Source of the DNA: Alphaproteobacteria bacterium
Lineage (GTDB): Bacteria > Pseudomonadota > Alphaproteobacteria > MPNO01
Direction of reading: 5' to 3'
Assembly: GCA_964291675.2 (NCBI GenBank)
Contig: OZ219866.1
Coordinates: forward strand, 960,001 to 1,024,000
Length of the DNA: 64,000 nucleotides
The position numbers and the translations under genes are program-made. Position 1 is the stretch's first letter, and the number at the start of each line of letters is the position of its first letter. Shown here piece by piece: positions 5,116-34,848 of this stretch. The notes under the pieces were generated by a model that saw only the letters and a list, made by a program, of their open reading frames with translations, searched no databases and was not told where the DNA came from.

Positions 5116-6969
5116 CTATAGCTGGGCGAGCAGGATCACACCTACCACGATGGCCAGGCAGGCGATTTGCAGCCCGAGGATCGACCACAGCAGGACCCGT
5201 TCCTGCCGGCCCTTTCCGGAAGAGGCGAGCGCGGCCCGGATCTCGGCGACCGCACGGTCGCGGAATGCCTCCAGCTCGGCCGCCGCTTCGGCGGAGGGGA
5301 CGAATTCCGGCGCCATGCCGGAGGCCGCGGGAGCGGAAGTCTCCGGGACGGTCGCTACCCCCGCCGCGAACACCGGGGCTGGAGCGGAGACCGGCAGGTC
5401 CGGGGCGGGCGTTTCCGGCTCCGGCTCGCCGGGTTCTTCGGGTTCCGGGACCAGCGCCGCCAGATAGGCGACCGGTTCCCCGTCGAGCGGCGAGCTGCGG
5501 CGATAAACGCGGAACTCCTCGCCCGGATCGTTGCGGATCGCCGCCAGAGCCTGGGCGGCGCCGTTTGCGGAAACGCTCTCGGCGCCGACGATCCCCCCCG
5601 CCTTGACATGCACCCGGTGGAGGATCGCTTCCCCGCGCCAGAACTCGATGTCGATCGGCTGTCGGCTGAGGTCGAGCGAACCGATCAGGAGGTCCAGCGG
5701 GAAGTCCGCTAACCGGCCGCGCAGGAACAGCGCGCCCCGGCTCTGCGGCGCATCGCGGGCGGCGGGAGCGGCGGGACGGGCGGCAGGCTGCCGCATGGCG
5801 GCCAGCAGCTCGGGAACGCCGCCCAGCGGTTCGCCCGCCTCTTCCGCCATCTCGTAGCGTATCTCGAAGGTCTCGCCGTGGTCGGCGCAGAGCTGCCGGA
5901 GGGCTTCCATGCCGTGCAGCCCGCCGGCCGCCGCCGCCAGAACCTGCCCGGACTCCACCATCATCGCGCCGACCTCGGCATCGCCCCGCATGAACGAGAC
6001 GACGACACAGCGGTCGCTGAGTTGCAGGACTTCCAGGATTTCGTCGAAGCTCGCGTCGTCCACCCGCCCCTGCATGATCGGATCGCCATCCTCCGGCGGC
6101 GGCGGCGCGGCCGGCGGGACCTCTGGCGTCGGCGGTTCGAGCGGGGCGGCTTCGATCGCGACGTCGGGCGAATCCGTGGCGAGGGGCCGGGGCTCGGCGT
6201 CCCCGGCCGGGTGCGCGGCTTGCACGGCCTCCCGCGCGGGCGGTAACGCGGGCGTGGCCTCGGCGGCGGCTGCGGTCGGCGGGACCTCCGGCGTCGGCGA
6301 ATCGGGCGGGGCGAATTCGATTGCTGCGTCGGGCGGCTCGGCTTCCCGTTCGGGCGGCAATGCGGGCGCGACCTCCGGCGTCGGCGGTTCGGGCGGCACG
6401 GCTGCGATCGCGGCGTCGGGCGGTTCGGCGCCGAGGGGCTCCGGTTCGGCGGTCCCGGCGGAGAACGCGGCTTGCGCGGCCTCCGGCTCGGGCGGCAATG
6501 CGGGCGCGACCCCGACGGCGTCGTGCTCCGGGGACTCGACGGGGAATTGCGGGCCGGAAACCTCGAAAATCTCATCGGTGCCGATGACTTCCCCGCTCGG
6601 CGGCTCGGCGGCGGCGTGGTGTCCGCCGTCTTCTTCGGACAGCAATTCGGCGAGCCCGCAGAGCGGCGCATCGTTCTGCAGCTCCGGCGCGTTCGGCGGC
6701 AGCATGACCACCGAGAATGCGGTGCCCGGATCGCCGATCAGGGCGTTCAGCGCGTCGCCGCCCGTGGCCTCGCTGCGGAAATCTCCGGCGCGGACCACCT
6801 GGCCCGCCTTGATCGCGATCGCGCCCACCTCCCGTTCCCCGCAGGAGAAGCGCACCTCCAGGAGTTGGCGGCTCACGGCGAGCACGCCGAACAGCTCGGA
6901 AAGCGGGCAGGTGCGAAACGAACCCCGGAGAAAGAGGGGCGTCGCCTGCCGATCGCCCGAACTCACCAA
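5116..6969 (-). CDS. Protein with three DUF4388 (PATAN-like) domains, Pro/Glu/Ala-rich linker and C-terminal transmembrane anchor
   Basis: Three ~80-aa repeats (LFLRGSFRTCPLSELFGVL...AGQVVRA; IMQGRVDDASFDEILEVL...SGQVLAA; LFLRGRLADFPLDLLIGSL...AGGIVGA) fit the DUF4388 pattern; terminal hydrophobic helix VLLWSILGLQIACLAIVVGVILLAQL. Confidence 0.72.
   Translation of the reverse strand: MVSSGDRQATPLFLRGSFRTCPLSELFGVLAVSRQLLEVRFSCGEREVGAIAIKAGQVVRAGDFRSEATGGDALNALIGDPGTAFSVVMLPPNAPELQNDAPLCGLAELLSEEDGGHHAAAEPPSGEVIGTDEIFEVSGPQFPVESPEHDAVGVAPALPPEPEAAQAAFSAGTAEPEPLGAEPPDAAIAAVPPEPPTPEVAPALPPEREAEPPDAAIEFAPPDSPTPEVPPTAAAAEATPALPPAREAVQAAHPAGDAEPRPLATDSPDVAIEAAPLEPPTPEVPPAAPPPPEDGDPIMQGRVDDASFDEILEVLQLSDRCVVVSFMRGDAEVGAMMVESGQVLAAAAGGLHGMEALRQLCADHGETFEIRYEMAEEAGEPLGGVPELLAAMRQPAARPAAPAARDAPQSRGALFLRGRLADFPLDLLIGSLDLSRQPIDIEFWRGEAILHRVHVKAGGIVGAESVSANGAAQALAAIRNDPGEEFRVYRRSSPLDGEPVAYLAALVPEPEEPGEPEPETPAPDLPVSAPAPVFAAGVATVPETSAPAASGMAPEFVPSAEAAAELEAFRDRAVAEIRAALASSGKGRQERVLLWSILGLQIACLAIVVGVILLAQL
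6115..6510 (-). repeat. Imperfect intragenic repeats encoding the PD(A/V)AIxxxPxxxPTPEVxP linker
   Basis: Three related DNA blocks beginning g(g/c)gacct(c)(t/c)ggcgtcggcg near 6116, 6281 and 6368, interleaved with ALPP(E/A) units. Confidence 0.7.
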
Positions 6970-6982
6970 CGATCTCCCCGGT

Positions 6983-7477
6983 TCACGTGATGCGGCCGAA
7001 TTCCATCTTTATGCTCGACGCCTTGCCTCCCAACCGCATGCTGGTCGCCAGGATGCGGTAGAGCTTGGTCCAGGCGCGCTTCAGCTCTGGGGTGAATCCC
7101 TCGCCCAACCCGTTCTCCAGCGCCCATATCAGCGCCCGCTCGAACGGTCCGTAGGCATCGTCGGGTATCTTGTACAGGGCGTGGTGGCGGCGCCCCAGCG
7201 CGAGTACGACCAGGAAAAGGTCCCGCTGCGGCGCGACATCTTCCTTCCACTGCTCCTCGGTCCAGTCCAGCGACTTGGTGACGAAGGCGAGCATGGCCAT
7301 CAGCTTGCGCTTCTGGCCGGTGATGTCTTCGGGGAACAGCCGGCGATAGTGCGGCTGCTCCTCGAACAGCCGCCCGAAGAACAGGTCCGCGACGGTCTCC
7401 CACACCGGAGCGATGAGGCGGTAGGTCCCGACGATCAGGGTCTTTTCGTGGGCGTTGAGCAGCGTTCTCTCAGTCAT
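6983..7477 (-). CDS. Single-domain globin
   Basis: Globin landmarks: ADLFFGRLFEEQP (B helix), RRLFP (CD1 Phe), GQKRKL (E7 Gln), LGRRH (F8 His), ALIWAL..LGEGFTPELKRAWTKLY (G/H helices). Confidence 0.88.
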   Translation of the reverse strand: MTERTLLNAHEKTLIVGTYRLIAPVWETVADLFFGRLFEEQPHYRRLFPEDITGQKRKLMAMLAFVTKSLDWTEEQWKEDVAPQRDLFLVVLALGRRHHALYKIPDDAYGPFERALIWALENGLGEGFTPELKRAWTKLYRILATSMRLGGKASSIKMEFGRIT

Positions 7478-7526
7478 GCCTGTGGATGCCTCCGCTCGGT
7501 CGGGTGCGTTTCCATATGGGCCCGGC

Positions 7527-7555
7527 GATCTATCCGCCGCCACCGATGGCGTCAA
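7527..7555 (-). promoter_or_regulatory. Possible sigma70 promoter for the globin operon
   Basis: Minus strand TTGACG-N17-TAGATC about 50 nt upstream of the globin ATG. Confidence 0.35.
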
Positions 7556-7695
7556 CAATCCCATGGCCCGTCACAATGCGAAGCCGGGCCGGGGGGACCC
7601 CGGCGACTCGATAAACTTCTACGCTTTAACGCCTTTTACGGCGTCGGCGGGCATCCGGGCAGCCCGTGCGGCGGATCGCCGCATTGGACGCGGGA

Positions 7696-8127
7696 TTACC
7701 GGGGCGCTCGCTCGGCGGCGGCGGCGAACCAGCGTCGGCAGGCGGATTCGGGATCGCCCTCCCCGGCGAGGTCGAGGGCGGCGTCGGCGTCGGCCTCGAT
7801 ACGGGCGCCGGCCGCCCCGGCGAGCGCTTCGAGCTTGCCGCGGACCGCCGGGGATCCGGCGAAGCGGATGGTTTCGACCGACCGGCGCAGCGCCGCCAGC
7901 GCCATGCCGGGGGAGTCGCCGCAATCGAGAACCGCGTCGATGGGGACGTCCGGGTGGGCGCGCCGGGCCGCGCGGACGATTTCGGCGAACCAGGCGGCCC
8001 CCGCATAGCCTGCGGCCGCGGGCCCGCTCCTGAGGCGGACGGCGGTGCCGAGCGCCGCCGCCGCGCGGGCCGCGGCGAGCGCGTGGTCGAGGCCGTGGAC
8101 GACCACGGTCGGCTTGGGTCCGGGCAT
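7696..8127 (-). CDS. Conserved hypothetical protein
   Basis: MPGPKPTVVVHGLDHALAAA...AAGYAGAAWF...VLDCGDSPGMALAALR; resembles a Rhodospirillales hypothetical usually found upstream of fbaB (from recall). Confidence 0.65.
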   Translation of the reverse strand: MPGPKPTVVVHGLDHALAAARAAAALGTAVRLRSGPAAAGYAGAAWFAEIVRAARRAHPDVPIDAVLDCGDSPGMALAALRRSVETIRFAGSPAVRGKLEALAGAAGARIEADADAALDLAGEGDPESACRRWFAAAAERAPR

Positions 8128-9027: not shown

Positions 9028-9612
9028 GTGACCCTCGCTCGGGACAAGAAGCGCCTGCGCGCGGAGATGACCGAGGCGCGACGGCTGGCCGCGGCGGATT
9101 CGGGCCGCGCCGCGCGCGCGGTGCGCGACCGGTTCCTCGCCCGTTTCGGCGAGCGGGTCGCCGGCGCCGGGGTTTCCGCCTACTGGCCGATCGGGGACGA
9201 GCTCGACCCGCGGCCGTTGCTCCACGCCCTTGCGCGGCGCGGGGCGATCTGCGCGCTGCCGGCGGTGGTCGGCCCCGGCCGCCCGCTGGCCTTTCGCCGC
9301 TGGCGGCCCGGCGACGCGCTGGTCGAGGCGAAGTTCGGGCTCAGCGAGCCGCCCGGTTCCGCGCCGCCGGTCGTGCCCGAGATCGTCCTCGCGCCGCTGC
9401 TCGCGGTCGATCGCGCCGGCCGCCGGCTGGGCTACGGGGGCGGCTACTACGACCGGACGATCGCGGCGCTGGAGCGGCGGGGCGAGGTGGTCGCGGTGGG
9501 AATCGGCTACGATGTGCAGATCCGGTCCTGCGTGCCGGCCGGCGCCGGCGACCGGCGGGTGGACTGGGTGGTGACGGAGAAACGGATCCTCGAATGTTCG
9601 GAGGGCGCATGA
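9028..9612 (+). CDS. ygfA: 5-formyltetrahydrofolate cyclo-ligase
   Basis: GTG start; YWPIGDELDP, PLLAVDRAGRRLGYGGGYYDRT, VVTE. Confidence 0.93.
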   Translation: MTLARDKKRLRAEMTEARRLAAADSGRAARAVRDRFLARFGERVAGAGVSAYWPIGDELDPRPLLHALARRGAICALPAVVGPGRPLAFRRWRPGDALVEAKFGLSEPPGSAPPVVPEIVLAPLLAVDRAGRRLGYGGGYYDRTIAALERRGEVVAVGIGYDVQIRSCVPAGAGDRRVDWVVTEKRILECSEGA

Positions 9613-9622
9613 CGGGCGGGCT

Positions 9623-10438
9623 ATGCGGCTGCTGATCTGCGGCGACGTGGTGGGACGGTCGGGGCGGAGCGTCGTCCGCGACGAGCTGCCGCTTCTGCGC
9701 GAGACCCTCGACCTCGACTTCGTGATCGTCAACGGCGAGAACGCGGCGGGCGGGTTCGGCATCACGCCCAAGATATGCGACCAGCTCTTCGAGGTTGGGG
9801 CGGACGTGATCACCACCGGCAACCACGTGTTCGACCAGCGCGAGATCATTCCCCATTTCGACCGCGAGAAACGGTTGCTGCGCCCGGACAACTATCCGCT
9901 GGCCACCCCGGGCCGCGGCTGGGGGGTGTTCCCCGACCGCCGCGGCCGCAAGGTGCTGGTGCTGCACGCGATGGGCCGGCTGTTCATGGACCCGCTCGAC
10001 GACCCGTTCGCGTTCGCCGCCAGGCGGCTTGCCGAGGACGGGCTGATGCGCACCGTCTCGGCCATCGCGGTCGATTTTCACGGCGAGGCGACCAGCGAGA
10101 AGATGGCCTTCGGCCATTTTCTCGACGGCCGGGTGTCGTTCGTGGTCGGAACCCATACCCATGTGCCGACTGCCGATGCGCAGATCCTTCCGGGCGGCAC
10201 CGCCTATCAGACCGATATCGGCATGTGCGGCGATTACGATTCGGTGATCGGGATGAAGAAGGCGACCTCCGTCGAACGCTTCGTGCGCAAGATGCCGACC
10301 GTCAGGCTCGAAGCCGCCGACGGCGCGGCCACGCTATGCGCCGCCTTCGTCGAGACCGACGATTCGACCGGCTTGGCGCTGCGCATCGATCCGCTGCGAA
10401 TCGGCGGCCGGCTGAGCGCCGCGCTTCCGGACCGCTGA
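9623..10438 (+). CDS. ymdB: TIGR00282/YmdB family metallophosphoesterase
   Basis: GDVVG, NGENAAGGFG, TGNH, DFHGEATSEK, GTHTHVPTAD. Confidence 0.92.
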   Translation: MRLLICGDVVGRSGRSVVRDELPLLRETLDLDFVIVNGENAAGGFGITPKICDQLFEVGADVITTGNHVFDQREIIPHFDREKRLLRPDNYPLATPGRGWGVFPDRRGRKVLVLHAMGRLFMDPLDDPFAFAARRLAEDGLMRTVSAIAVDFHGEATSEKMAFGHFLDGRVSFVVGTHTHVPTADAQILPGGTAYQTDIGMCGDYDSVIGMKKATSVERFVRKMPTVRLEAADGAATLCAAFVETDDSTGLALRIDPLRIGGRLSAALPDR

Positions 10439-10618
10439 CGGCCCCCCGCCCGTATCGCTTTTCCAAGCAATGGCTTGGGCTTAGTCAAAATGTCGCCACA
10501 TTGATCGTCGACAAGGTGCGGTCGTTCGTGGTGCGTTCCACTCCATCGGCGGCTGCGTTAGGGTTCGCGACATTCGAAACCGGGCACGACGCGGATCGTT
10601 CCCGCGCGAAGGGATTGC

Positions 10619-11368
10619 ATGGCCGGTCACTCAAAATTCAAGAACATCATGCACCGCAAGAGCGCCCAGGACGCCAAGCGCTCGAAGCTGTTCACCCGGC
10701 TGATCCGCGAGCTCGCCGTCGCCGCGCGCTCCGGCCTGCCCGACCCCGACCAGAACCCCCGGCTGCGCTCGGCGGTGGCCGCCGCCAAGGCCGCCAATAT
10801 GGGCGGCGAGACCATCGATCGCGCCATCCGGCGCGGCTCCGGCGCCGAGGACGGGGAGCAGTATGACGAGATCCGCTACGAGGGTTACGGCCCCGGCGGC
10901 ATCGCGATCATCGCCGAGGCGCTGACCGAGAACCGCAACCGGACCGCGGCGGAGGTTCGCGCCGCCTTCGCCAAGCACGGCGGCAATCTCGGCGAGACCA
11001 ACAGCGTCTCCTTCATGTTCGACCGCGTCGGCGCGGTGCGCTACCCGGGCGGGTCGGCGTCCGGCGACGAGATGTTCGAGGCCGCGCTCGAGGCCGGCGC
11101 GACCGACGTGGAGTCGGCCGAGGACGGCCACGAGGTGGTGTGCGCGCCGGAAGACTTCAACGAAGTCCGCGAGGCGCTGGAGACGCGCTTCGGGACGCCG
11201 GAATCGGCGGAGCTGGCCTGGCGGCCATCGAGCACCGTCGAGGTCGACGAGGCCGGCGCGGAGAGGCTGTTCAGGCTGCTCGAGGCGCTGGAGGAGAACG
11301 ACGATGTGCAGTCGGTGGCGGCGAATTTCAGCGTCGCCGACGACATCATGGCGAGACTGACCAGTTGA
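10619..11368 (+). CDS. yebC: YebC/PmpR family protein
   Basis: [34 protein letters not shown]. Confidence 0.96.
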
Positions 11369-28943: not shown

Positions 28944-29240
28944 TCAGCCCGCCGCCGGCTTCCGGCGCTTCGGCTTCGGGGCGGGGGCGGTCTTGGCGGC
29001 CAGCGCGGCTTCCAGCGCCGCGACCCGCTCGGCCAGAACTTCCTGCTCGGCGCGGGCGTTGGCGGCCATCTCGCGTGCCGCCTCGAACTCGTCGCGCCTG
29101 ACCAGGTCCATGCCGGCGAGGATGCGTTCGAGCCGGGCATGCACCAGCGCCTCGACCTCGCGCTTCATGGCGACCGCGGTTCCCACCGCCCCCTCGGCGA
29201 GCCGCGCGGCGTCCTCCAGGATGCGGTTGTTCGACTGCAT
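28944..29240 (-). CDS. ubiK: Ubiquinone biosynthesis accessory factor UbiK (BMFP family)
   Basis: MQSNNRILEDAARL...DLVRRDEFEA..EMA..AR...L..RV..LEA. Confidence 0.85.
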   Translation of the reverse strand: MQSNNRILEDAARLAEGAVGTAVAMKREVEALVHARLERILAGMDLVRRDEFEAAREMAANARAEQEVLAERVAALEAALAAKTAPAPKPKRRKPAAG

Positions 29241-29343
29241 GGCCCGACTGTGCCGCAACCCGGCGGGTTCGGCAAGCGGCGGGAATACCGCGGGACGAAC
29301 CTCTTGGGGGGAGGCGGGTTGGCGATCCGTAATGGACTGATGC

Positions 29344-29367
29344 TGGCGGAGGGGGTATTTGAACCGC
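29344..29367 (-). other. Degenerate tRNA(Ser)-like 3' end, possible integration-site (att) remnant
   Basis: Minus strand GCGGTTCAAATACCCCCTCCGCCA resembles GGTTCRAATCCCACCCCCTCCGCCA lacking 3 nt; lies at the edge of the A/T-richer block. Confidence 0.4.
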
Positions 29368-29443
29368 GAACTCTGCGCGAGAGCATCGTCCGGGTTTGCC
29401 CCAAGCGAATATCCGCGACGCGGATCCTGGGCAGGAGGCACAG

Positions 29444-30802
29444 ATGTTGAAGCGTCTGCGACTGGCCAATTTCAAGGCGTGGGAGGAGGCCGATCTACGA
29501 TTCGGCAGGGTGACCGGGTTCTTCGGCACCAACAGCGCCGGCAAGAGCAGCCTCCTCCAGCTCCTGCTCTTGCTCAAGCAGACGAAGAATGCGACGGACC
29601 GGGGCCTGGTGCTGGATTTCGGCGGGCCTTCCGACTTGGTGAACCTCGGAACCTATAGCGATGTCGTGCACCGGCATGACGAAGAGACAAGAATAAGCTG
29701 GCTCCTCGACTGGTCCCTCCCGGAAATCATGAGGATCAACCAGCGAGTAGCATCTCCCAGCCCGCTCGAATTGGAGGGAAATTCCCTTCAGACACGATGT
29801 GAGGTCGGTCTGCGGCGCGAACGCCCTTGGCCGTATGCGTTGGCCTACACGTTCGATCAGATAGATTTCCTCGTGGAATCTCAACTGGGGTCGGAAAACA
29901 ACTTCAAGCTGGACACATCTGCCGCCGAATTCAGGTTCAAACGCAATCAGGGTCGAGCATGGCCGCTCTCCCACCCGATCAAGACGCACCTATTTCCGAA
30001 CGAGATGAGACGTTTCTATCAGAACGCCGATTTTCTGCGCGGCTTCGAGTTGGAATACGAACGTTTCATGGACTCAATTTACTACTTGGGGCCTCTCCGG
30101 GAGTATCCACAACGTGAGTACGGCTGGGCGGGTTCCAGCCCCGGCGATGTCGGACAGCGGGGAGAGCGCACGGTAGACGCGATCCTCTCCGCCACTCGCG
30201 ACGGACAGTTGCGAAATCTCGGATATAGGAAGAGAAGAAAGACGTTTCAGGAGATGATCGCACATTGGCTGAGCGAGCTAGGGCTGATTCATGAGTTTCG
30301 AATCAAGGAAATTGCGAGAGGTACGAACCTGTACCGAGCGGAAGTGAAAACTACCGAGTCGAGTCCATGGACCCTCTTGACCGATGTCGGGTTCGGCGTG
30401 TCCCAGGTGCTGCCTGCCTTGGTTCTCCTCTACTACGTTCCGGAGGGTTCAACCGTGTTGATGGAGCAGCCGGAGATACATCTCCATCCGGCCGTGCAGA
30501 GCGGGCTGGCCGACGTCATGCTGAGCGTCGCGAAGACCCGGGACGTTCAGATTGTCGTGGAAAGCCATAGCGAGCATCTGATGCGGCGCCTTCAACGGCG
30601 GGTGGCCGAAGGTGAGGCATCTGCGGAAGATGTCAAGCTGTACTTCGTTTCAACCGATGGGCGGAGTGCGCAGACTTCCGATTTGTCCCTCAACGAGTGG
30701 GGCGAAATCGAGAATTGGCCGGACCACTTCTTCGGCGACGAGATGGGCGAAATCGCGGCCATCACCAAGGCTTCTTTGAAGAGGAAAATAGGACATTCTT
30801 GA
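29444..30802 (+). CDS. ABC-superfamily (AAA_21/AAA_15-like) ATPase with C-terminal DUF3696
   Basis: AGGAGG RBS; LANFKAW, Walker A GTNSAGKSS, GFGVSQVLP signature, Walker B/D-loop LMEQPEIHLHP, ESHSEH, C-terminal GEIENWPDHFF. Confidence 0.88.
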   Translation: MLKRLRLANFKAWEEADLRFGRVTGFFGTNSAGKSSLLQLLLLLKQTKNATDRGLVLDFGGPSDLVNLGTYSDVVHRHDEETRISWLLDWSLPEIMRINQRVASPSPLELEGNSLQTRCEVGLRRERPWPYALAYTFDQIDFLVESQLGSENNFKLDTSAAEFRFKRNQGRAWPLSHPIKTHLFPNEMRRFYQNADFLRGFELEYERFMDSIYYLGPLREYPQREYGWAGSSPGDVGQRGERTVDAILSATRDGQLRNLGYRKRRKTFQEMIAHWLSELGLIHEFRIKEIARGTNLYRAEVKTTESSPWTLLTDVGFGVSQVLPALVLLYYVPEGSTVLMEQPEIHLHPAVQSGLADVMLSVAKTRDVQIVVESHSEHLMRRLQRRVAEGEASAEDVKLYFVSTDGRSAQTSDLSLNEWGEIENWPDHFFGDEMGEIAAITKASLKRKIGHS

Positions 30803-31278
30803 TGAATACGTTTGTCGTGGACACCAATGTTGCAATCGTCGCTAATGGTGGGCACGGGGTCGATGCGGACGAGTCGTGCCAACTAACCTGTGCGGAGAGG
30901 TTGGAACGCTTGGTGCAGCGCGAAACGGTAGCCGTCGATGAAACTGGGCTACTCATCGAAGAATACGCCAGACACCTATCATGGGCCGGCGCACCCGGCG
31001 TCGGCGATATGTTTTTCAAGCACTTGGTCGATCGGCAGTATGCGAAGGACCGGGTTTGTCGGGTGTCCATCATCGAGTCCGATGACGATCGCAGAGGATT
31101 TGAACAACTTCCCGCAAACGATTTCGACCCGTCGGACCGCAAGTTCCTGGCGGTCGCCGTTGTGGCCGATGCAGTGGTGATGAACGCCACCGACAGCGAC
31201 TGGGAAGAACACGCGGATCTGATGAACGAGCTGGGCGTGGAAGTCGACCAGCTTTGTCCCCAGCATGCCAGCAAGTGA
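30802..31278 (+). CDS. PIN-like nuclease domain protein
   Basis: TGATG coupling to the ATPase; acidic PIN-type residues in VVDTNV, EEY, DPSDRKFLAVA, TDSDW. Confidence 0.7.
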   Translation: MNTFVVDTNVAIVANGGHGVDADESCQLTCAERLERLVQRETVAVDETGLLIEEYARHLSWAGAPGVGDMFFKHLVDRQYAKDRVCRVSIIESDDDRRGFEQLPANDFDPSDRKFLAVAVVADAVVMNATDSDWEEHADLMNELGVEVDQLCPQHASK

Positions 31279-31972
31279 CGTTGGCGGAGCGGCCGGAAAC
31301 GACGGTGCAACTTCCTTGAACCGGAAATATCCCAGAACCCCGTACTGGCCCTATTCGCCGGCCGTCGGGCGCGAGGACGGCATGCATCCGGACCCCGGGC
31401 GTTTCGTGGGCGTGCCCGTGGTGGTGACGGAGAAGCTGGACGGCAGCAACACGCTCTTGCACGACGGCAAGGTCTATGGACGCAGCGTGTCCGCCCCGTC
31501 CGAAGCGAAATGGATGGCGATGGCGAAGAAGCACCACGCCTGGAAGGTGACCGGACCGGAAGTCTATCTTTATGGAGAGGACATCTATGGTGTGCACAGC
31601 ATTGCCTACGCGGCGGTGCCCGAAGACCGGACGTTCTACGCCTTCGCGCTCCGCGACGGGGCCGGCGCCTTCGCCCCTTTCGCCGATTTGGAAAGCTATG
31701 CGGAGGGGCATGCGATCCCCGTCGTGCCCGTCCTGTTCCGCGGGATCTTCCGCTCGGTGGCCGAGCTGCGCGCCTTCCTGGAATGCGCCCACGCCGAGCC
31801 TTCCGTTCTCGGCGGCGAGCGCGAGGGAGCGGTCGTGCGGCTGGCTTCCGGGTTTCCCGGGTCCGAGTTCGCGTTCAACGTCTGCAAGAGCGTTCGCGCC
31901 GGCCATGTGCAGAGCGACGAGCATTGGATCAGGAACTGGAGGCCCTGCAAGATCGCGCGCAGCTCCGCCTAG
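31265..31972 (+). CDS. ATP-dependent RNA ligase family protein (nucleotidyltransferase domain only)
   Basis: KYPRTP, motif I TEKLDGSN, III YGED, IIIa FYAF, IV EGAVVR, V KSVRAGH; alternative TTG start at 31316. Confidence 0.85.
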   Translation: MPASDVGGAAGNDGATSLNRKYPRTPYWPYSPAVGREDGMHPDPGRFVGVPVVVTEKLDGSNTLLHDGKVYGRSVSAPSEAKWMAMAKKHHAWKVTGPEVYLYGEDIYGVHSIAYAAVPEDRTFYAFALRDGAGAFAPFADLESYAEGHAIPVVPVLFRGIFRSVAELRAFLECAHAEPSVLGGEREGAVVRLASGFPGSEFAFNVCKSVRAGHVQSDEHWIRNWRPCKIARSSA

Positions 31973-34355: not shown

Positions 34356-34637
34356 ATGGTGCGTGTCGAGTACGATCCGGTCAAGCGCGCGCTCACCCTG
34401 GAGGCTAGGGGACTCGATATGGCTCGCGCCGGAGAAGTCTTCGACGGTGCGACGCTGACGGTGCAGGACGACCGGCGGGATTACGGCGAAGACCGCTACA
34501 TCACCATCGGCTTCCTCGACGATGCGATGGTTGTATTTGTCTGGACCCGCCGGGCTTGGGTCAGGCGCGTCATTAGCATGAGGAAGGCCAATGAACGGGA
34601 ACGAAGGCTCTACCGTCCGCTACTCGGACCGGGATGA
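34356..34637 (+). CDS. brnT: BrnT family toxin (RelE-like RNase)
   Basis: EYDPVKR....RGLD, DYGEDRYITIG, RVISMRKANERE. Confidence 0.9.
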   Translation: MVRVEYDPVKRALTLEARGLDMARAGEVFDGATLTVQDDRRDYGEDRYITIGFLDDAMVVFVWTRRAWVRRVISMRKANERERRLYRPLLGPG

Positions 34638-34848
34638 CGCGCCCGACCTTTCCCGCGACGGCTGGCCGGAAAAATTTGCCCGTGCGCCCGTGCGCCGTGG
34701 CCGGCCGCCGTCTGTCCGACCCAAGGTGTCGACCACCATCCGCCTGTCGCAGGACGTGATCGACCATTTCAGGGCCGGCGGGCGCGGCTGGCAGACGCGG
34801 ATCGACGAGGCGCTGCGTGACTGGATCGCCCGGCGCGGCGCCGGCTGA
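34591..34848 (+). CDS. brnA: BrnA family antitoxin
   Basis: RRGRP...PK..TTIRLS.DV.DHFRA.G.GWQTRIDEALR. Confidence 0.9.
   Translation: MNGNEGSTVRYSDRDDAPDLSRDGWPEKFARAPVRRGRPPSVRPKVSTTIRLSQDVIDHFRAGGRGWQTRIDEALRDWIARRGAG

Follow-up and report, generated by a model that had tools for sequence, protein, structure and literature searches.

An RNA ligase gene is the conserved third member of stand-alone HEC-03 ATPase-PIN cassettes

Organization of the cassette and its predicted products

The window, that is the whole stretch of 64,000 nucleotides that was analyzed, carries a cassette of about 2.5 kb in which the genes for an ABC-type ATPase, a PIN nuclease and an RNA ligase follow one another in that order on the + strand. 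The coding region occupies 29444-31972 and the DNA homology to other loci spans 29422-31970. The ATPase open reading frame (29396..30802) has an ATG at 29444 that gives a protein of 452 aa, the PIN frame (30697..31278) has an ATG at 30802 that gives 158 aa, and the ligase frame (31265..31972) encodes 235 aa. The TGA of the ATPase gene (30800-30802) and the ATG of the PIN gene have one base in common (TGATG, 30800-30804), and the ligase frame, from its ATG at 31265, overlaps the PIN gene (stop codon ending at 31278) by 14 nt. The three overlapping, same-strand frames of the original prediction were found as described, with the caveat that the ligase may start instead at an in-frame TTG (31319), giving 217 aa, the usual length among its relatives, and a 40-nt gap to the PIN gene rather than an overlap. 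The database gene call for the ligase (P0002, 196 aa) starts at M40. However, residues 21-39 (KYPxTPYWPxSP..GR) are kept across loci, which places the start upstream of M40.

The cassette is chromosomal and stands alone among housekeeping genes, with UbiK-like, YbjN and ProC genes on one side and RidA and TauD genes on the other, outside any Hma (helicase-methylase-ATPase) system. Its first two genes are A/T-richer than the flanks, as had been claimed. The GC content is 0.570 for the ATPase, 0.574 for the PIN and 0.657 for the ligase gene versus 0.705 and 0.703 for the flanks, so that the ATPase and PIN genes lie about 13 GC points under their surroundings. The left edge is marked by a conserved short leader (29422..29443, + strand), at which the blastn homology of 77 unrelated loci starts; the homology begins between 29422 and ~29470 and never further left.

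The ATPase (29444..30802) matches the Pfam families AAA_15 (E 3e-21) and AAA_21 (4e-19), and a C-terminal DUF3696 helix region (PF12476, 2.6e-9) was identified at residues 394-438 (30623..30757). The PADLOC model PDLC04148 aligned with residues 1-450 on profile positions 1-454 of 458 (E 7.3e-204), and the PADLOC model for NsnB also matched (E 3.7e-63). An alignment of 38 sequences showed that G28, N30, S31, G33 and K34 of the Walker A motif GTNSAGKS (residues 28-35, 29525..29548) are invariant, as are E341, E344, H346, H348 and P349 of the Walker B region E341-Q342-P-E344-I-H-L-H-P (30464..30490), while Q342 is at least 90% conserved. By our own reading of this alignment, Gln appears to take the place after the Walker B acid that is usually filled by the catalytic Glu.

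The 158-aa product of the second gene (30802..31278) had no Pfam match at E ≤ 0.01. Members of its family matched PF01850 (30 of 39 at E ≤ 1, best 3.9e-4) and PIN_3 (25 of 39 at E ≤ 1, best 1.9e-3) weakly, below the cut-off. The PADLOC model PDLC04147 covered residues 4-158 on profile positions 3-157 of 159 (E 3.4e-65). An AF2 model of the protein (pLDDT 93) had VapC, Rrp44-PIN and HARP as its top PDB matches (probability ~1, E ~1e-3, TM 0.4-0.58), which supports a PIN fold. The acidic residues D7, E54, D112 and D131 are invariant among 39 sequences and 92-100% conserved among 133 family representatives. The PADLOC match, the model and the conserved residues identify a predicted VapC-like PIN nuclease and, judged by sequence, the window ATPase and PIN belong to the HEC-03 families over their full length.

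The third gene (31265..31972) encodes a predicted minimal ATP-dependent RNA ligase, consisting of the nucleotidyltransferase domain alone. RNA_ligase PF09414 matches residues 51-202 (E 4e-18, 66.5 bits, cut-off 27). Motif I, K57-L-D-G (31433..31444), contains the predicted adenylylated lysine, and reads EEKLDG or EEKIDG in distant plasmid ligases. Among 34 aligned sequences K57, D59, G60, E105, F127, E187, G188, R192, K208 and R211 are invariant; by a motif numbering that is our own, all of these except F127 would fall in motifs I, III, IV and V. The motifs named in the original prediction (GTNSAGKS, EQPEIHLHP, the PIN acidic residues and KLDG) are all present and conserved in the alignments of 38, 39 and 34 sequences, and all three cassette proteins keep their predicted catalytic motifs. 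The structural model of the ligase is poor (pLDDT 62, with residues 60-123 below 50), and its fold matches to Naegleria RNA ligase (NgrRnl), archaeal Rnl3, T4 Rnl2 and Trl1 had E values of 8e-5 and weaker with TM 0.4-0.5. At 217-235 aa in total, the protein lacks the appended RNA-binding or OB domain of Rnl1-5. PADLOC returned no match for the ligase.

Of the three proteins the ligase varies least, with a mean p-distance of 0.30 vs. 0.34 and 0.41 for the others. A kinase domain (PF13671) is fused to most of the 113 longer ligase relatives, and none of the 113 is fused to a PIN or an ATPase; likewise, no long forms were present among the best 150 PIN relatives. The cassette ligase has neither a kinase nor a phosphatase partner which, given that the longer relatives are mostly kinase-fused, fits RNA ends that can be ligated directly (3'-OH/5'-P). 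Outside the cassette, relatives of the ligase occur as kinase fusions, beside an AAA ATPase or a TIGR02452-family protein in Deinococcus, and alone on plasmids. The nearest Atlas clusters of the minimal ligase type are 55-58% viral, and the type also occurs in jumbo phages.

Linkage, spread and damage of the three genes

The 80 closest loci, spanning at least 10 phyla, were compared. The tblastn search placed the ligase directly downstream of the PIN in 73 of these loci. By a stricter test the ligase is intact in 68, damaged in five and absent in seven, the ATPase is intact in 76, and all three genes are intact in 60. The ATPase, PIN and ligase genes are the only ones common to at least 69 loci; no cluster from outside the cassette is found in more than 13. 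Blastn homology to 77 other loci ends at the cassette edges. In 66 loci, the PIN stop and the ligase start closest to it are separated by a median of 24 nt (range -25 to +82). Furthermore, the distance matrices of the three proteins from 58 loci and the window co-vary, with r = 0.83 for ATPase-ligase, 0.68 for ATPase-PIN and 0.62 for PIN-ligase (Mantel p = 0.001). Since the same genes occur in the same order in 73 of the 80 related loci, the three-gene arrangement is not due to chance, and the ligase is the conserved third gene of a stand-alone cassette. The original prediction had treated the trio as one unit and would have given this up for a ligase never linked to the ATPase-PIN pair elsewhere; the linkage holds across phyla and on plasmids.

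The cassette spreads by wide horizontal transfer. Its tree is incongruent with the host phyla, and its GC content is under that of the flanks in 62 of 63 loci. The ligase was found in five of the six plasmid loci examined, and the order ATPase-PIN-ligase is present on plasmids of Azotobacter, Aeromonas (two records), Rhodococcus and Tistrella. In the three plasmids compared with the window, the ATPase is 37-45%, the PIN ~33% and the ligase 25-28% identical. Some of these plasmid carriers are conjugative or mobilisable, and the cassette adjoins AbiEii and Hok/Gef genes there.

The exceptions to this pattern were also considered. Two forms embedded in helicase/methylase systems have no ligase, one located between DrmMI and DrmA (L013) and the other after a helicase and a methylase (L084). 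A ligase-less locus on an Acinetobacter soli plasmid has an HNH gene after the PIN. Intact ATPase and PIN genes are accompanied by an absent ligase at three loci (L013, L022 and L057) and by a damaged one at three others (L047, L052 and L058). Because these six loci keep the intact pair without an intact ligase, the ligase is not an essential antidote. The ATPase is broken at two loci with intact PIN and ligase (L051 and L067) and at a third, L072, that has an intact PIN and no ligase, which does not fit a simple model with the ATPase as the only brake. The PIN is damaged in 11 of the 80 loci vs. four for the ATPase, and four of the 11 damaged PIN genes have deletions that remove the catalytic core. 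This excess of PIN damage may be read as a sign that the PIN is toxic.

Relation to known systems

HEC-03 (Hma-embedded candidate 03) is reported as a two-gene anti-phage system that protects E. coli and needs both genes, with apparent toxicity in the presence of IPTG and a PIN called VapC-like (Payne et al. bioRxiv 2024). It was found embedded in Hma systems, and the anti-phage result applies to the tested homologue only. The window has the same adjacent, same-strand ABC ATPase and VapC-like PIN, and both PADLOC models (PADLOC-DB v2) were matched over their full length. In contrast to HEC-03, however, the window pair stands outside Hma and is joined by a conserved RNA ligase that has no PADLOC model; a ligase is never named in the main text of the preprint (0 occurrences of the word). 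The layout of an ABC ATPase with a nuclease effector had been correctly anticipated. The trio had also been taken not to be a named system, and this does not hold for its ATPase-PIN pair, which is HEC-03 in PADLOC and is described in the preprint as anti-phage and as toxic when induced. The third criterion of the original prediction was that the pair should not map to a named system, and its mapping to HEC-03 removes the novelty of the pair. Ligase-less relatives exist and HEC-03 is reported in the preprint to defend with two genes, which makes the ligase an accessory rather than a core part.

The Menshen system (NsnA-NsnB-NsnC) is similar in that the window ATPase is NsnB-like, with an ABC ATPase domain and a DUF3696 tail, and its partner has a PIN fold. 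In the Menshen paper, NsnB has 'EN' in place of the Walker B 'DE', the DUF3696 tail is modelled as clamping the PIN-like domain of NsnC, and the PIN-like domains of NsnC are described as adaptors without activity. The Walker B 'DE' thus appears altered in both ATPases, to EN in NsnB and to EQ in the window protein. However, the NsnA gene (ParB-DUF262) is absent from the cassette, in which only three genes are conserved, and no NsnA match was found among the neighbours scanned. Moreover, the window PIN keeps its D-E-D-D residues, is only 158 aa long without a C-terminal effector domain, and had no NsnC match in PADLOC. The cassette has a ligase, whereas none is mentioned for Menshen (0 occurrences of the word in the paper).

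Operons of PIN, ligase, ATPase and HNH genes, in which the RNA ligase neutralises the nucleases, appear in a table of Matelska et al. 2017, credited to Burroughs & Aravind, NAR 2016; a similar idea was thus apparently published in 2016. The 'ATP-grasp ligase' of that table row, which is the source for the system here, corresponds in the usage of the Aravind group to Rnl-type ligases (Iyer 2021). The parts are of the same kinds, the neutralising idea is the same, and in the window cassette, too, an Rnl-type ligase and an ATPase share an operon. The system was filed by Matelska under PIN_3.COG1569, the family that the window PIN family matches weakly (best 1.9e-3). It differs in its HNH gene, which is absent from the window and from the conserved cassette and was seen only at the ligase-less A. 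soli locus.

PrrC and RloC, together with phage T4 Pnkp-Rnl1, also combine an ABC-ATPase-controlled defence RNase with an RNA ligase that can undo the cleavage. The nuclease of PrrC and RloC is not known to be a PIN, and Pnkp has to heal the ends before ligation in T4. The ATPase and nuclease form one protein in PrrC and RloC and are separate genes in the cassette. The repairing ligase there is a counter-defence of the phage (RloC abstract), whereas the host cassette carries its own. HARP, a PIN_5 protein-only RNase P, is genomically linked to Rnl3, a circularising ligase (Seshadri & Gopalan 2025), and so provides another PIN-like RNase linked to an ATP-dependent RNA ligase. However, the families are different (PF09745 for the PIN and PF18330 for Rnl3), the genes are mostly divergent and have no ATPase, and the roles proposed in that source are in tRNA biogenesis or stress, not defence. 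PARIS, Septu and Gabija also pair a sensor ATPase with a nuclease, either separate or fused to it, but their effectors are Toprim or HNH proteins and they have no ligase. The PADLOC models AriA and GajA match the window ATPase weakly and partly, AriA at residues 306-379 and 280-380. An assignment of the cassette to PARIS was rejected because the effector is a PIN, not the AriB Toprim, and the AriA matches are partial. VapBC has the VapC-like PIN fold and acidic residues in common with the cassette, but no VapB-type antitoxin gene is present; the gene upstream of the PIN encodes the 452-aa ABC ATPase, a partner also noted by the preprint, and the gene downstream encodes the ligase.

Possible role of the ligase

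We tentatively favour, with a confidence somewhat short of even, the reading that this is a horizontally transferred, self-contained anti-phage cassette in which the HEC-03 pair is joined by a dedicated RNA ligase that, we infer, reseals the 3'-OH/5'-P cuts of the PIN. The ABC ATPase, probably a dimer or tetramer, would hold the PIN via its DUF3696 tails, as modelled for Menshen NsnB-NsnC, and would act as infection sensor and switch. On a phage cue the PIN RNase would cut an essential RNA (tRNA, rRNA or mRNA) and translation would stop. Metal-ion catalysis, assumed from the PIN superfamily, would leave 3'-OH and 5'-phosphate ends; the two-metal mechanism of PIN domains has a 3'-O leaving group (Matelska 2017). 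A minimal Rnl-type ligase could seal such ends and would need no kinase or phosphatase. Rnl-type ligases are described as needing 5'-P ends, and metal-independent RNases as requiring RtcB or end healing (Iyer 2021). The ligase might mop up leaky cleavage in uninfected cells, let survivors restart, or both. It would be an accessory, lost or absent in the forms embedded in helicase/methylase systems, with the two-gene form defending without it. A ligase that undoes the work of the effector would seem to weaken the defence, unless it is slower or regulated.

The possibility was considered that the ligase is merely a neighbouring host gene, adjacent by chance, as its GC content of 0.657, between that of the pair (0.57) and the flanks (0.70), would allow. 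However, the ligase gene is GC-richer than the ATPase gene in 63 of 63 loci, which makes the intermediate GC content a property of the cassette. This pattern, the linkage in 73 of 80 loci with unrelated flanks and the edges of the homology refute the explanation, to which we give next to no credence. It is improbable, for different reasons, that the ligase serves in general RNA repair against foreign RNases (phage, plasmid or competitor toxins), so that two defences travel together. Its relatives occupy many other contexts, and clustering is common among defence genes. However, the genes overlap or are spaced as in an operon, their order does not vary, the cassette edges match the three genes, and the ATPase-ligase correlation exceeds that of ATPase and PIN. 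The ligase also lacks a partner for end healing, which the ends left by most toxin RNases need (Iyer 2021).

We consider it unlikely that the ligase is a co-effector, although PIN and ligase evolve together as a unit and neither has lost its catalytic residues. In this case the PIN would cut an RNA, for instance at two sites or with trimming, after which the ligase would rejoin or circularise the pieces. The resulting RNA, shortened or circular, would be a dead end beyond the reach of phage repair enzymes. A host would gain from such repair-proof damage, given the largely viral nearest ligase clusters and the occurrence of the type in jumbo phages. The RloC abstract describes excision of the wobble nucleotide, interpreted as a means of thwarting repair, and the link of HARP to a circularising ligase provides a further parallel. 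However, HEC-03 defence was reported for a two-gene system, several loci with an intact pair have lost the ligase, and double cutting or trimming has no indication. A selfish addiction module, in which the ligase and/or ATPase counteract the PIN toxin and stabilise the mobile DNA that carries them, phage defence being secondary, is quite improbable. The plasmid loci beside AbiEii and Hok/Gef genes, the wide horizontal transfer and the frequent inactivation of the PIN would be explained. However, the pair gave E. coli phage defence (Payne et al. bioRxiv 2024), the window copy is chromosomal among housekeeping genes, and an enzymatic antidote would not obviously cause post-segregational killing unless it decays faster than the toxin.

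A more far-reaching form of the favoured resealing reading is doubtful. In it, an RNase of abortive infection would cause an arrest that the ligase makes reversible and non-suicidal. With the weapon (PIN) and a repair kit (ligase) for the cell's own RNA in 2.5 kb, the cassette would be the first 'cut-and-reseal' RNA immune module encoded by a host. The stand-alone mobile form would depend on its ligase to be tolerated by naive hosts, while embedded forms do without. In a bolder variant, the PIN and ligase would excise and rejoin RNA so that phage repair enzymes could not restore it.

Host defences that cut RNA, such as tRNA, are usually seen as suicidal, or as undone solely by repair enzymes that phages encode. 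In this cassette, a validated host defence pair has a built-in RNA ligase of the repair type, whose nearest clusters are largely viral and which spreads with the pair across at least 10 phyla. If the ligase buffers or reverses PIN damage, this would show how an RNA-targeting abortive system becomes safe to carry and survivable, and would account, too, for the establishment of such cassettes in new hosts. PADLOC-type HEC-03 models miss the third gene found in most of the close relatives examined. The A and B labels of HEC-03 in PADLOC and in the preprint are swapped relative to each other.

Identity and layout of the cassette

When the three proteins were compared with PADLOC-DB, the ATPase and the PIN protein each matched a model over their full length, PDLC04148 ('HEC-03B', E 7e-204) and PDLC04147 ('HEC-03A', 3.4e-65), respectively, and the ligase had no match. 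The original prediction did not recognise the trio as a named system; its ATPase-PIN pair, however, already has a name. That the locus is a conserved three-gene cassette of the HEC-03 type is close to certain. HEC-03 (Hma-embedded candidate 03) pairs an ABC ATPase with a VapC-like PIN protein and was discovered inside helicase-methylase-ATPase (Hma) systems (Payne et al., bioRxiv 2024). According to the available portions of that preprint, HEC-03 cut plaquing in E. coli, both genes were needed, and the assays were run without IPTG owing to apparent toxicity; the word 'ligase' is absent from its main text. The A and B labels are reversed between the two sources: PADLOC HEC-03B is the ATPase and HEC-03A the PIN protein, and the preprint text available has HEC-03A as the ATPase and HEC-03B as the PIN protein. 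'HEC-03' appears as a defence system in the preprint and, going by their titles, in two surveys. The window ATPase also shows a likeness to Menshen, in that it matches the NsnB model (3.7e-63). The Menshen paper, in which a search for 'ligase' found nothing, describes a model where the inactive PIN-like N-domain of NsnC is clamped by the DUF3696 tails of NsnB. Literature searches found no experimental study of the ATPase-PIN-ligase trio. The pair is known already.

The ORF scan bore out the three co-oriented genes described originally, with the ATPase at 29444-30802, PIN at 30802-31278 and the ligase at 31265-31972, all on the + strand. The ATPase stop and the PIN start have one base in common (TGATG), and the ligase ATG sits 14 nt within the PIN ORF. 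An alternative in-frame TTG at 31319 would give a ligase of 217 aa, the usual length among its relatives, and a 40-nt gap after PIN. In the database the ligase is called as P0002, a 196-aa product that begins at Met40, preceded by a GAGGA box. Since residues 21-39 (KYPxTPYWPxSP...GR) are conserved in other genomes, the P0002 call is too short, and the real start is either the ATG at 31265 or the TTG at 31319 (region 31265-31381). The claim that the first two genes are A/T-richer than their surroundings also held: the GC content is 0.570 for the ATPase, 0.574 for PIN and 0.657 for the ligase, and the 5-kb flanks stand at 0.705 and 0.703.

Housekeeping genes flank the cassette. ProC, YbjN and a UbiK-like gene lie upstream on the opposite strand, and downstream there are genes for a RidA-like protein, for TauD and for an Fe-S protein, followed at 34.4-34.8 kb by a BrnT/BrnA pair. 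The BrnT toxin and BrnA antitoxin genes (34356-34637 and 34591-34848, + strand; Pfam 4.6e-20 and 2.8e-20) are 2.4 kb downstream of the cassette and form the only other conflict-type module seen nearby. The UbiK/BMFP-like ORF (28944-29441, - strand) is listed as 165 aa. It is probably shorter because its domain begins at residue 69-75, which would leave ~200 nt, not 2 nt, between it and the start of the ATPase, and it is in this stretch that GC begins to fall. No sigma-70-like consensus promoter was found at the cassette, and shuffled sequences had terminator-like sites just as often. The cassette is not bounded by terminal repeats, either direct or inverted, the pairs detected falling within neighbouring genes. 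There was no tRNA gene between positions 20 and 42 kb and no Rfam match between 28.5 and 32.6 kb.

Linkage of the ligase to the ATPase-PIN pair

A one-genome-per-species scan yielded 288 ATPase relatives, and the best 80 of these (53-89% identity) were retained. Analysis by tblastn placed a ligase homologue directly 3' of PIN in 73 of the 80 loci and none in the other seven, so the linkage of the ligase to the pair that was noted in the window recurs in other genomes. Where whole, these ligase homologues were 63-85% identical. A stricter test of intactness, based on core coverage and the lack of internal stops, was then applied to the 80 loci. All three genes were intact in 60 loci. PIN was damaged next to an intact ATPase and ligase in six; the pair was intact with the ligase absent in three and with the ligase damaged in three; PIN was damaged and the ligase absent in three; and the ATPase was damaged with PIN and ligase intact in two. 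The remaining three loci each had another combination. In this scoring the ligase of locus L026 counts as intact though it runs into the contig end, and the PIN of L011 counts as damaged, where it may merely diverge at the N-terminus.

The gene most often broken was PIN (11/80 loci vs. 4/80 for the ATPase), and four of the PIN breakages are deletions of the catalytic core. The frequent breakage fits a costly nuclease. Among the decayed copies, L020, L033, L037 and L041 carry four independent deletions running from inside PIN into the ligase start (about 9360-9600). L056 has a ~1.1-kb insertion within PIN (about 9520-10650), and L015 has a stop codon in PIN. The ATPase of L067 is split by an insertion-sequence-like element, as judged from the start of its ORF (about 6500-8000).

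When the ORFs of the 80 loci were clustered (all those reaching 90 aa), only the three cassette genes and their shadow ORFs were common to at least 69 loci, the next non-cassette cluster being present in at most 13. In 77 loci, the DNA shared with the window was limited to 29422-31970. Collinearity past the cassette was seen on both sides in only one locus (L001) and on the right side in two (L004, L005). The distance from the PIN stop to the nearest ligase start lay between -25 and +82 nt (median 24), with an overlap in 15 of 66 loci. The pairwise distances of the three proteins are correlated, with r=0.83 for ATPase and ligase, 0.68 for ATPase and PIN and 0.62 for PIN and ligase (Mantel p=0.001; 58 loci and the window).

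The possibility was considered that the ligase, with its intermediate GC content, is a gene of the host flank. This was ruled out: all 63 loci compared have a ligase richer in GC than the ATPase, so the intermediate value belongs to the cassette itself. The ATPase GC was below that of its flanks in 62 of the 63. In a quick maximum-likelihood tree, the ATPase sequences do not track host phyla, and rows lacking the ligase occur at several separate positions; the 'noLIG' label of L082, an Aeromonas plasmid locus outside the 80, is an E-value cut-off artefact, the record itself annotating an RNA ligase. The cassette at 53-89% ATPase identity was present in MAGs of at least 10 phyla, and its tree crosses phyla. 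The hosts include Palauibacter, Binatia, Aphanocapsa feldmannii and Vicinamibacterales, taxa typical of marine sponge microbiomes.

More distant copies were found in PLSDB, where a PIN homologue occurs in 12 plasmid records, adjoining a DUF3696 or AAA ATPase in all 12. The third gene was an 'RNA ligase family protein' in five of the six plasmid loci examined out of these 12, namely those of Azotobacter chroococcum pAcX50e, Aeromonas veronii, Aeromonas salmonicida, Rhodococcus aetherivorans and Tistrella mobilis pTM2. Direct comparison of the Azotobacter, A. veronii and Rhodococcus proteins with those of the window gave identities of 37-45% for the ATPase, ~33% for PIN and 25-28% for the ligase. 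Distant plasmid trios of such low identity point to a trio that is old and widespread. The sixth, an Acinetobacter soli plasmid, carries helicase, methylase, hypothetical, ATPase (split), PIN and HNH genes without a ligase, and in L013 the pair sits, again without a ligase, between DrmMI- and DrmA-like genes. The ligase is missing from both of these embedded forms. In phage records the ATPase matches were only partial (at most 55% of the query), and the cassette was therefore not seen on phages. On two Aeromonas conjugative plasmids (L082 and L090) the trio has AbiEii-family and Hok/Gef genes on one side and, on the other, genes for a metallophosphoesterase and for GASH, a protein of the 'GTPase-associated system'; the trio and its neighbours there form a small defence/addiction island.

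Catalytic residues and the proposed role of the ligase

The three proteins can be assigned to families, their catalytic residues are conserved and their genes are tightly linked. NCBIfam has no name for any of them, and PDB sequence searches with PIN or the ligase returned nothing meaningful. PIN had no Pfam match at E<=0.01; PF01850 was touched by 30 of 39 family members at E<=1, and PIN_3 by 25 of 39. The AlphaFold model of PIN is confident (pLDDT 93), and the closest PDB structures are all PIN domains (VapC toxins, Rrp44 PIN and HARP), with a probability of ~1 but E ~1e-3 and TM-scores of 0.4-0.58. Residues D7, E54, D112 and D131 are invariant in the 39 cassette PIN sequences. The wider family numbers 1484 representatives (E<=1e-3), and in 133 of these, which share 30-61% identity with the window PIN, the four residues are 92-100% conserved. 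Three cysteines, C26 (30877-30879), C30 (30889-30891) and C152 (31255-31257), are present in 97%, 84% and 99% of the 133 representatives and link the first long helix with the C-terminal tail; distant plasmid versions have C-x3-C ... C-x4-C. They could form a zinc site or a disulfide, unusual among VapC-like PINs.

The Pfam matches of the ATPase (AAA_15 3e-21, AAA_21 4e-19 and a C-terminal DUF3696 2.6e-9) mark the gene 1 product as an ABC-type ATPase. Among 38 sequences the key residues of Walker A (GTNSAGKS) are invariant, as are E341 and E344 of the Walker B region M-E-Q-P-E-I-H-L-H-P (E341 to P349 at 30464-30490), where Q342 is at least 90% conserved. ABC ATPases usually carry a catalytic Glu at the position taken by this Gln. 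The substitution is a hint of a switch that binds ATP and hydrolyses it slowly or not at all. At the same place, NsnB is reported in the Menshen paper to have 'EN' for the Walker B 'DE'.

The ligase scored 66.5 bits against Pfam RNA_ligase PF09414 (cut-off 27), and 34 sequences all have K57-x-D-G, E105, E187-G, R192 and K208-x-x-R211. It consists of the nucleotidyltransferase domain alone, without an appended domain. Its structure model is weak (pLDDT 62), the best PDB matches being the RNA ligases of Naegleria, archaeal Rnl3, T4 Rnl2 and Trl1. At E<=1e-5 there were 1934 relatives of the same length. Most of the 113 longer relatives join the ligase to an AAA_33 kinase domain, and the closest one joins it to PF10127; none of the 113 is fused to PIN or ATPase, and the fusion search found no long PIN forms among the best 150 PIN relatives (87-264 aa). 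Homologues of ~200 aa occur in jumbo phages (26-42% identity), the nearest Atlas clusters are 55-58% viral, and other plasmid homologues have varied gene contexts. The cassette ligase is a repair-type enzyme of a kind common in phages, here without an end-healing partner.

A mechanism can be proposed in which the ATPase would sense infection and turn PIN on, PIN would cut essential RNA, and the ligase would reseal the PIN-type breaks, buffering leakage or permitting recovery. The full statement is offered tentatively and falls a little short of probable. The idea that the nucleases of PIN-ligase-ATPase-HNH operons are neutralised by a ligase is credited to Burroughs and Aravind (2016) in a table of Matelska et al. 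(2017). According to the latter paper, PIN nucleases are in general believed to rely on metal-ion catalysis in which 3'-O is the leaving group. Rnl-type ligases require 5'-phosphate ends, and the ends left by metal-independent RNases require RtcB or healing enzymes, as stated in the accessible part of Iyer (2021).

On this reading the ligase may act as an antidote to PIN. However, the HEC-03 for which the preprint reports defence is a two-gene system, which speaks against that role, as do the six of 80 loci that keep the pair without an intact ligase and the three of 80 that keep PIN with a broken ATPase. Moreover, a self-reversing effector would require some timing control, and none was seen. 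Another minimal ligase with partner proteins was observed in D. radiodurans MP1 (L091, 1507-3591), where a 210-aa ligase-family protein, 31% identical to the window ligase, is encoded by the first gene of an operon that also holds genes for a TIGR02452-family protein and an AAA ATPase.
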